Shown: positions 7,501 through 7,939, counted from the first letter of the stretch. The stretch: DNA of 24,668 nt from a virus (IMGVR_UViG_2563366840_000014:1-24668), one strand, 5' to 3'. The notes: a model not told the origin generated them from the sequence alone. Program-made: numbers and translations.

Positions 7501-7746
7501 ATGACTTTTGATGAAAAAGAACTTGATAATGCAATTAATAAAATCATCGTAACGTCGCTCTTTTCCTGTCTCAGCGACACTCAGCAGAAACAGTTCTACG
7601 AATCGGCTTTCAACATGATCGAGCGTTGTTGTTTCTGCGATGCCGACGAGTTACCTGAAAAAATCAGGAAACAGTTGGCTGATGCTCTTCGAGTGCGACT
7701 TTCTGACCAATTTTCTGAAATGTGCTCTCCGAATTTGGACAAATAG
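7501..7746 (+). CDS. Hypothetical small protein (81 aa), AT-rich, opposite in direction to the early-left operon
   Basis: AGGA RBS 9 nt before the ATG; imperfect hairpin downstream at about 7755-7785; 3' end overlaps the convergent 7664-7939 ORF. Confidence 0.45.
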   Translation: MTFDEKELDNAINKIIVTSLFSCLSDTQQKQFYESAFNMIERCCFCDADELPEKIRKQLADALRVRLSDQFSEMCSPNLDK

Positions 7747-7939
7747 AAAAAGGCCATTTCCATTCAGGGTCTGATGGAAATACTTCAGCCTGTTCCAAAG
7801 CACGGCGTAAAGAGAATACAACTCCAGCCATAATCTGATGTTTCCCATTGGTCCAGCTATCGCCGCTCTGATCTACAGGAGCGGCTATGTCGTATGACCA
7901 AACGACTTCACCACTATTGTTTAAAATCTGGACTTTCAT
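7664..7939 (-). CDS. Hypothetical protein (91 aa), first ORF downstream of the leftward early promoter
   Basis: GGAGG upstream of the ATG at 7939; occupies the N-gene position; 3' 83 nt overlap the plus-strand ORF. Confidence 0.45.
   Translation of the reverse strand: MKVQILNNSGEVVWSYDIAAPVDQSGDSWTNGKHQIMAGVVFSLRRALEQAEVFPSDPEWKWPFSICPNSESTFQKIGQKVALEEHQPTVS

Follow-up and report, generated by a model that had tools for sequence, protein, structure and literature searches.

How should two small genes be read that run into each other tail to tail, on opposite strands, at the start of the early-left operon of a lambdoid prophage: as two genes or as one gene and its shadow, and as accidental neighbours or as a coupled device? 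The window, meaning the whole stretch of 24,668 nucleotides analysed here (IMGVR_UViG_2563366840_000014:1-24668), is an SfV/e14-like lambdoid prophage. It carries an 81-aa open reading frame (ORF) on the plus strand (gene A, 7501-7746) and a 91-aa ORF on the minus strand (gene B, 7939..7664), whose 3' ends converge and whose coding sequences overlap by 83 nt (7664-7746). An initial annotation of this DNA had singled out the pair, and its coordinates, lengths and overlap all proved exact on recomputation.

The convergent pair, its setting and its distribution

The region around the pair closely matches known phages, with 99.9% identity to Escherichia phages vB_EcoM-720R4 and SKA5 across 7300-8170 and 98.6% identity to Shigella phage SfV across 7300-7941. 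To its right lie a cI-type, LexA-like repressor gene (8826..8173, minus strand) and cro (8922-9119, plus strand). Left of the repressor gene and its terminator hairpin, a scan identified a PL-like sigma-70 promoter on the minus strand (TTGACA-18-TACATT, 8086..8057, 10/12 matches), flanked by an inverted operator-like repeat. In the window, as had been proposed, B comes first after this promoter, and A opposes the surrounding PL operon, like sieB in lambda. The ribosome-binding sites were also located as described: AGGA, within AAGGAAA, stands 7 nt before the ATG of A (7490-7493, plus strand), and GGAGG stands 12 nt before the ATG of B (7956..7952, minus strand), outside the module that is conserved between phages. 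The GC content of A (0.41) and B (0.44) is below that of the window (0.50), which agrees with the earlier description of A as AT-rich.

The sequence CCGGGG-ATA-CCCCGG, placed between an A-run and a T-run at 8127..8152, is a bidirectional terminator (hairpin 8134-8148; fold z-scores of -3.6 on the minus strand and -4.3 on the plus strand), and the SfV record has a terminator annotated at the equivalent position after cI. Judged by its sequence, this hairpin would end the cI transcript and would be the first terminator-like structure met by a rightward transcript of A; a terminator scan of the window found none on the plus strand between 7746 and 8127. A hairpin inside B (7755-7785) was considered as a conserved terminator and rejected, being specific to the SfV lineage and reflecting WPF codons.

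In vB_EcoM-720R4, RAST called a 54-aa ORF on the plus strand (7887-8051 of the window) that overlaps both the PL leader and the start of B. Matching nothing in PHROG or Pfam and conserved only within this immunity type, it is probably spurious. In some E. coli prophages a 67-aa gene named 'ClpX C4-type zinc finger protein' lies between PL and B (L141 2008-2211, NZ_CP031898.1), so that B can also come second in the operon.

Both proteins are small, acidic (pI 4.5-5.7) and hydrophilic. A is acidic and soluble (pI 4.6, GRAVY -0.40) and has no hydrophobic or membrane segment; B, which is SfV orf33 and RefSeq WP_001514782, is acidic (pI 4.8, K+R 7 versus D+E 11) and Trp-rich, likewise with no hydrophobic segment. 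The initial annotation had found neither translation recognisable, and this stands: sequence searches with A and B against Pfam, NCBIfam, PADLOC and PDB returned no match, a PADLOC search extended to divergent homologues gave nothing at E below 0.01, and the only families matched, PHROG 3311 for A and PHROG 3195 for B, are labelled as of unknown function. The AlphaFold2 model of A is marginal (pLDDT 65; predicted helices at residues 5-22, 26-44 and 53-75) and that of B unusable (pLDDT 44). Fold searches gave no significant match, and Foldseek found none with E below 0.9 for the A model in PDB and BFVD. A literature search on the protein accessions and SfV orf33 retrieved no functional study. 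The Cys-rich motif RCCYCDAD of A is lost in the most distant lineage, which makes an obligatory metal site unlikely. The name 'cation transport regulator ChaB', given to A in one source, was rejected (hhalign probability 0.7% against a provisional ChaB sequence).

Existing annotations differ in which of the two ORFs they record. The SfV authors (orf33) and NCBI PGAP (WP_001514782) called B and not A, RAST called A and not B in phage 720R4, and A is missing from the PGAP annotation of three RefSeq records inspected. In a first word-indexed protein search, homologues of A were only near-identical or broken, though divergent homologues of B were found at 57-68% identity. This apparent scarcity of divergent A is an annotation artefact: the contigs with divergent B all have an intact A homologue on the opposite strand (62-63% identity) with an AAGGAAA ribosome-binding site, and gene callers miss A at the divergent loci because the B ORF extends to 122 aa there. 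A profile search with the A alignment retrieved annotated A proteins in Klebsiella oxytoca, K. variicola, K. michiganensis, Salmonella and Yersinia, and every locus behind these annotated proteins (Klebsiella, Salmonella, Yersinia) contains B, usually uncalled. The corresponding profile search with B, across 1.84 billion representative proteins, gave only 17 matches, all belonging to one small family. A contig scan of GTDB species representatives and viral contig scans with divergent B queries found no relatives, and an alignment scan returned only near-identical SfV-type loci.

The assembled set comprised 133 sequences, namely the window and 132 further loci, of which 130 extend far enough to hold both genes; every one of these 130 carries A and B together, both intact. 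They are present in five deep lineages (63-77% nucleotide identity) and in two more distant ones, with sources in E. coli, Salmonella, Klebsiella, Yersinia and metagenomes. Homologues of A share 59-63% identity, falling to 46-49% (L143) and to about 30% (L144 and L145) in the two most distant lineages. Homologues of B share 50-68% identity and always lie just downstream of a repressor gene, although the type of repressor varies greatly across loci. From the ATG of A to the ATG of B the distance is exactly 439 nt, with zero indels, in nine loci from the five deep lineages; in the most distant loci the repressor gene still directly precedes B and an A-like ORF still converges on it. The initial annotation had named the lack of conservation of one ORF in related prophages as grounds for abandoning the pair, and A and B are conserved together in every lineage found, well beyond what chance would give.

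The cassette is also common. It occurs in 404-515 of 5426 complete E. coli genomes, and at least 1000 public contigs encode each exact protein. Of 120 modules from the SfV-type lineage, 116 have an intact A and 118 an intact B. Some distant B homologues (P0064, P0065, P0066; L143 4001-4579) have an extra N-terminal 65-90 aa fused to the B domain, amounting to an 85-aa extension in L143, and still lie opposite an A homologue. In L144 the C-terminal motif of B is lost and the C-terminal helix of A is retained.

Selection on both strands

Substitutions at the locus follow two successive reading frames. Their periodicity fits the frame of A from 7501 to about 7716 and the frame of B from about 7730 to 7939, and in a sliding analysis it changes from A-like to B-like at about 7717-7750. 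Nei-Gojobori estimates were similar for the two genes, with pS 0.78, pN 0.22 and pN/pS 0.28 for A codons 1-54 and pS 0.64, pN 0.22 and pN/pS 0.34 for B codons 1-64; over A codons 1-60, pS was 0.78-0.87 and pN 0.22. On these substitution patterns, A and B are both real protein-coding genes under purifying selection in their own frames (pN/pS about 0.3). The initial annotation had held both translations to be protein-like, and the intact frames across lineages together with codon-periodic substitutions in the frame of each gene bear this out.

That only one ORF is a gene and the other its shadow might be suspected from the disagreement among annotators (B alone for PGAP and the SfV authors, A alone for RAST) and from the long, shadow-like tails of B. 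Against this, outside the overlap third-position periodicity follows the frame of whichever gene is there, with pN/pS near 0.3 in both, the start codons and ribosome-binding contexts of both genes are conserved, and both frames stay intact across lineages at 63-77% nucleotide identity. We regard the shadow-ORF explanation as refuted by geometry and selection analysis, with a negligible residual probability.

Where the constrained parts of the two genes meet, both frames are conserved at once. In the zone 7681-7726, which comprises A codons 61-75 on one strand and B codons 72-85 on the other, pS is 0.26 in both frames, compared with 0.64-0.87 elsewhere, and pN is 0.23-0.25. The frames are related such that A1=B1, A2=B3 and A3=B2. 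None of 5000 resamplings reproduced the drop in pS for A, and for B the proportion was 0.0002. Synonymous change is thus suppressed inside the overlap while purifying selection acts on both frames outside it, and these roughly 45 nt are genuine antisense dual coding, with about 15 codons read on both strands. As a natural example of coding on opposite strands the locus is clean, and its double constraint can be measured.

The remainder of the overlap behaves differently. The constrained part of B spans residues 1-85 (7685-7939), and the length of the B ORF differs by lineage (91, 93, 122 and more than 147 aa). B codons 86-91, or 86-122 in other lineages, have pN/pS above 1, and the tail lengths are as expected from synonymous resampling of A (P = 0.8-1.0 for tails of the observed length or longer). 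Selection on the overlap tail of B, considered as a candidate, is ruled out by these two results. Beyond residue 85, B is an unconstrained read-through tail, and the greater part of the 83-nt overlap carries no function in its own right.

A shared module, its upstream block and a recurrent slot

Conservation between phages has defined edges. On the right it ends at the start codon of B, with E. coli matches breaking at 7941 or 7960; on the left it continues past the start of A, where AAGGAAA in front of the start codon is kept in all lineages, into a non-coding block at 7433-7470, and the sequence further left is unrelated between lineages. Judged by these edges, A, B and the 38-nt block are one mosaic module (about 7433-7941), moved between phages as a unit. 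The proposal that A is an inserted moron is thereby only half retained: A does oppose the PL operon, but it was not inserted alone and belongs to this larger module.

The block (GCCTGTCTTTTCACCACTTCAGGCTCGGTGGTATCCTT, 7433-7470, plus strand, 38 nt) has about 90% identity between lineages, compared with 63-77% in the adjacent coding DNA. It contains two interleaved inverted repeats, stem S1 (7433-7437/7452-7456) and stem S2 (7445-7449/7460-7464), so arranged that they would form either a pseudoknot-like structure or mutually exclusive stems. In an alignment of nine variants, 97.8% of cells were paired, four pairs had compensatory double changes and none of 500 shuffles matched this, for a structure that had first been read by eye from those same sequences and of which RNAalifold recovered a single helix; by thermodynamic z-score the block was not significant. 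The G.U wobbles lie on the plus strand and favour a plus-strand RNA structure, which would place a transcription start upstream of the proposed -10. That element, an extended -10-like TGgTATCCT (7461-7469, plus strand), keeps its TAnnnT positions in all lineages; as a candidate A promoter it has 4/6 plus 4/6 matches with the extended TG and was not called by the promoter scan. From its sequence, the block may be the promoter of A, a 5'-UTR switch or both. A scan had suggested the hairpin 7445-7464 as a plus-strand terminator; we rejected this, and with it a conserved terminator function of the block, since the T-run is peculiar to the window (it is absent in e14, L003 and L007).

The same position is occupied by other convergent pairs in related prophages. 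In e14 of E. coli K-12 (L148, NC_000913.3 1201497-1202084), ymfI (plus strand) and ymfJ (minus strand) overlap by 63 nt, with the block upstream; in SfII (L138 2703-3062), SfII_36 (plus) and a 68-aa ORF (minus) overlap by 39 nt, again with the block upstream; and in SfIV (L139 2733-3360), SfIV_36 (plus) and a 73-aa ORF (minus) overlap by 29 nt, downstream of a degenerate block. The minus-strand partners in SfII and SfIV are unannotated in the phage records. An hhalign comparison of A and B with the pairs of SfII, SfIV and e14 found no homology. On these sequences, the early-left slot of e14/SfV-like prophages is a recurrent site for convergent pairs.

This slot bears directly on whether A and B are coupled at all. 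They could instead be unrelated abutting genes, an early gene and a rightward moron, overlapping by accident through a stop-poor antisense frame, and they would travel together for the reason that recombination between them would damage one or the other. We think this unlikely while giving it real weight: most of the overlap is an unconstrained tail of chance length (P 0.8-1.0) with pN/pS above 1, the C-terminal motif of B is lost in L144, and convergent pairs without homology to A and B occupy the slot in other phages, which may make the architecture a property of the slot and not of these proteins. What such an account handles poorly is that no locus has only one of the genes, across seven lineages down to about 30-40% identity and amid many unrelated flanking modules, that the 439 nt are free of indels in nine loci of five deep lineages, and that about 45 nt of double constraint have been kept and not resolved by shifting a stop codon.

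Immediately downstream of the cassette, in the direction of PL, a full-length match to the prophage sRNA STnc100 (Rfam RF02076) occupies 7199-7421 on the minus strand, scoring 49.1 bits where the gathering score is 47. A strong terminator hairpin closes it at about 7203-7247 (fold z-score -3.3). This RNA might be a terminated product close to PL, or it might be driven by a promoter of its own beside the block. STnc100 has been linked to PasD sRNAs (2026 preprint). PGAP places a 'frameshifted hypothetical protein' pseudogene (ymfH-like region) at about 7078-7388 on the minus strand; this coincides with the STnc100 RNA, and the interval is probably RNA rather than protein. A 226-aa ORF on the same strand (6701-7381) was rejected as a gene: it is a long-open-frame artefact, the real gene being yfdP (6701-7063).

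A 20-nt direct repeat, CGCATTCACCACAAC(G/T)CTAA, occurs at 7377-7396 and 8032-8051 with one mismatch. One copy falls where the PL leader begins, the other within the 5' part of STnc100, so that the two bracket the whole cassette, and each is followed by a different small GC hairpin on the minus strand. Two or more matches to the 14-nt repeat core, with up to two mismatches allowed, were found in only 3 of 100 shuffles. The repeats may be a trace of cassette insertion into an older PL-leader/STnc100 arrangement.

The order of B, block and terminator invites a comparison with antitermination, in which B would be an N-like factor, the block its RNA site, and transcription from PL would pass the STnc100 terminator (about 7200-7250). 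B does occupy the position of N, and the structured block lies between B and the strong hairpin at 7203-7247. Nevertheless, we consider this reading very improbable. The acidic B protein lacks an arginine-rich motif; the window contains a single copy of the candidate RNA element, which led us to reject a nut-like site repeated in the PR operon, and the wobbles of that element favour the plus strand; the block also accompanies cassettes that have no B (e14, SfII); and several cassette lineages have no STnc100 downstream.

A model for the pair and its relation to known systems

Our preferred reading, to which we assign a probability of roughly 45%, is that A and B are an excludon-type pair at the head of the PL operon, one gene for the lysogen state and the other for the early-lytic state, mutually exclusive in expression. 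While PL is repressed, A would be transcribed rightward from signals in the 38-nt block, and because no terminator precedes 8134, its transcript would extend in antisense through the whole of B and through PL. B would be made immediately after induction, from PL. With no terminator between the two genes, each transcript would be antisense to the other and expression would be mutually exclusive. Mutual antisense interference of A and B, which the initial annotation had deduced from the overlap, is plausible given that the positional analogue ymfI-ymfJ in e14 of E. coli K-12 is a published convergent excludon defined by RNA-seq. In the lysogen, transcription of A and the A RNA itself would suppress leaky expression of B. 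On induction, strong transcription from PL would collide with that of A and pair with the A mRNA, silencing A and completing a switch from A to B. Strict co-inheritance could come simply from physical overlap, which weakens this model.

The most speculative element is that the two proteins also act as a functional pair, in which A might be a lysogen-state accessory factor, modulating the host or acting against other phages, and B its early-lytic counterpart or neutraliser. The idea draws on lambda sieB, which lies beside N, and on prophage defences that have their own self-immunity. Carried further, A and B could be a two-protein prophage switch, with antagonism at both the RNA and the protein level and with expression set by the pseudoknot-like or alternative-hairpin element, and the slot and block could be a general plug-in site for convergent pairs of this sort (ymfI/ymfJ and those of SfII and SfIV) across lambdoid phages, serving for example defence with built-in self-immunity. 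We judge this extension to be clearly unlikely.

The initial annotation had suggested a superinfection-exclusion gene or a toxin/antitoxin-like pair. On such a reading, A would be produced in the lysogen and harm a superinfecting phage or the cell, and B, the first product of PL, would neutralise it and so clear the way for lytic growth of the prophage itself. The topology is that of lambda sieB/N and of Rac sieB-ydaF, a listed convergent excludon, and strict co-inheritance, an AT-rich composition relative to the window and presence in 404-515 of 5426 E. coli genomes all fit. The proteins themselves fit badly. Both are acidic and soluble, with no hydrophobic segment and no PADLOC match, and the suggested identity was not upheld; A is helical and has neither a membrane segment nor an enzyme motif, unlike SieB and type I toxins, and the decay bias expected around a toxin is not seen (A disrupted in 4/120 modules, B in 2/120). 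We hold a defence, exclusion or toxin-antitoxin role to be distinctly improbable.

SieB is a prophage-expressed, membrane-associated exclusion protein, and its gene offers a positional parallel. As in lambda N/sieB and Rac ydaF/sieB, the first PL gene here meets a rightward gene that opposes the operon, with A running against PL and converging on B. The lambda genes abut tail to tail (35037/35036) and do not overlap, N and sieB are not strictly co-inherited, and N has the arginine-rich motif that is missing from B. SieB is about 185-190 aa long, whereas A is an acidic, soluble protein of 81 aa; no homology of A to SieB was found, its only family match being PHROG 3311, with none in Pfam, and its length falls well below the roughly 160-190 aa expected of that family.

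The type I toxin-antitoxin loci txpA/RatA and bsrG/SR4, from prophage-like elements of Bacillus, also consist of convergent genes that overlap at their 3' ends. They share with A and B the orientation, the 3' overlap and the prophage location, and antisense pairing, which is the control principle in those loci, is what we propose here. In those loci, however, the antitoxin is a non-coding RNA and the toxin a small hydrophobic peptide, whereas A and B are two conserved, soluble, acidic proteins.

In excludons, overlapping transcripts lead to mutually exclusive expression through transcriptional interference and RNase III. A (plus strand) and B (minus strand) are convergent in all lineages and, as in excludons, have fully complementary 3' regions with no terminator between them, one partner lying under a strong, switchable promoter (PL). 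Excludons are defined by overlapping transcripts, whereas A and B are known here from gene arrangement. Classical excludons overlap in untranslated regions; A and B overlap in their coding regions, about 45 nt of which are doubly constrained.

A close counterpart, in an identical slot, is the ymfI/ymfJ pair of e14. There the leftward gene next to ymfK, which encodes a cI-like repressor, is ymfJ; ymfI faces it from the opposite strand, and the block (GCCTGTCTTTTCACCACTTCAGGCTCGGTGGTAT) lies about 40 nt upstream of ymfI. Together with Rac sieB-ydaF, ymfI-ymfJ is among the core convergent excludons of MG1655, those detected in half or more of 58 transcriptomes (PMC12288877). Late in the SOS response ymfJ is induced by log2 4-4.8 and YmfJ protein is detected, while ymfI changes by 1-2 (PMC11002266), and the YmfT iModulon list includes ymfH and ymfJ and not ymfI (PMC12132413). 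In e14, ymfJ belongs to an SOS- and repressor-controlled regulon that ymfI does not follow. These published results concern the e14 pair and serve as analogies for the slot, not as evidence on A or B. The e14 proteins differ in size (YmfI 113 aa, YmfJ 102 aa) and have no hhalign similarity to A or B. If a lysogen/lytic switch or a defence with self-immunity proves correct, the pair would be a new module of the lambdoid immunity region, and a role would be hinted at for the long-uncharacterised K-12 genes ymfI and ymfJ. Excludon-type pairs, convergent and overlapping, are known from the head of the early-left operon in lambdoid phages; A and B join them as an uncharacterised member, and add a gene absent from PGAP in the three RefSeq records inspected, about 45 nt of dual-coded sequence and a structured element common to the slot.
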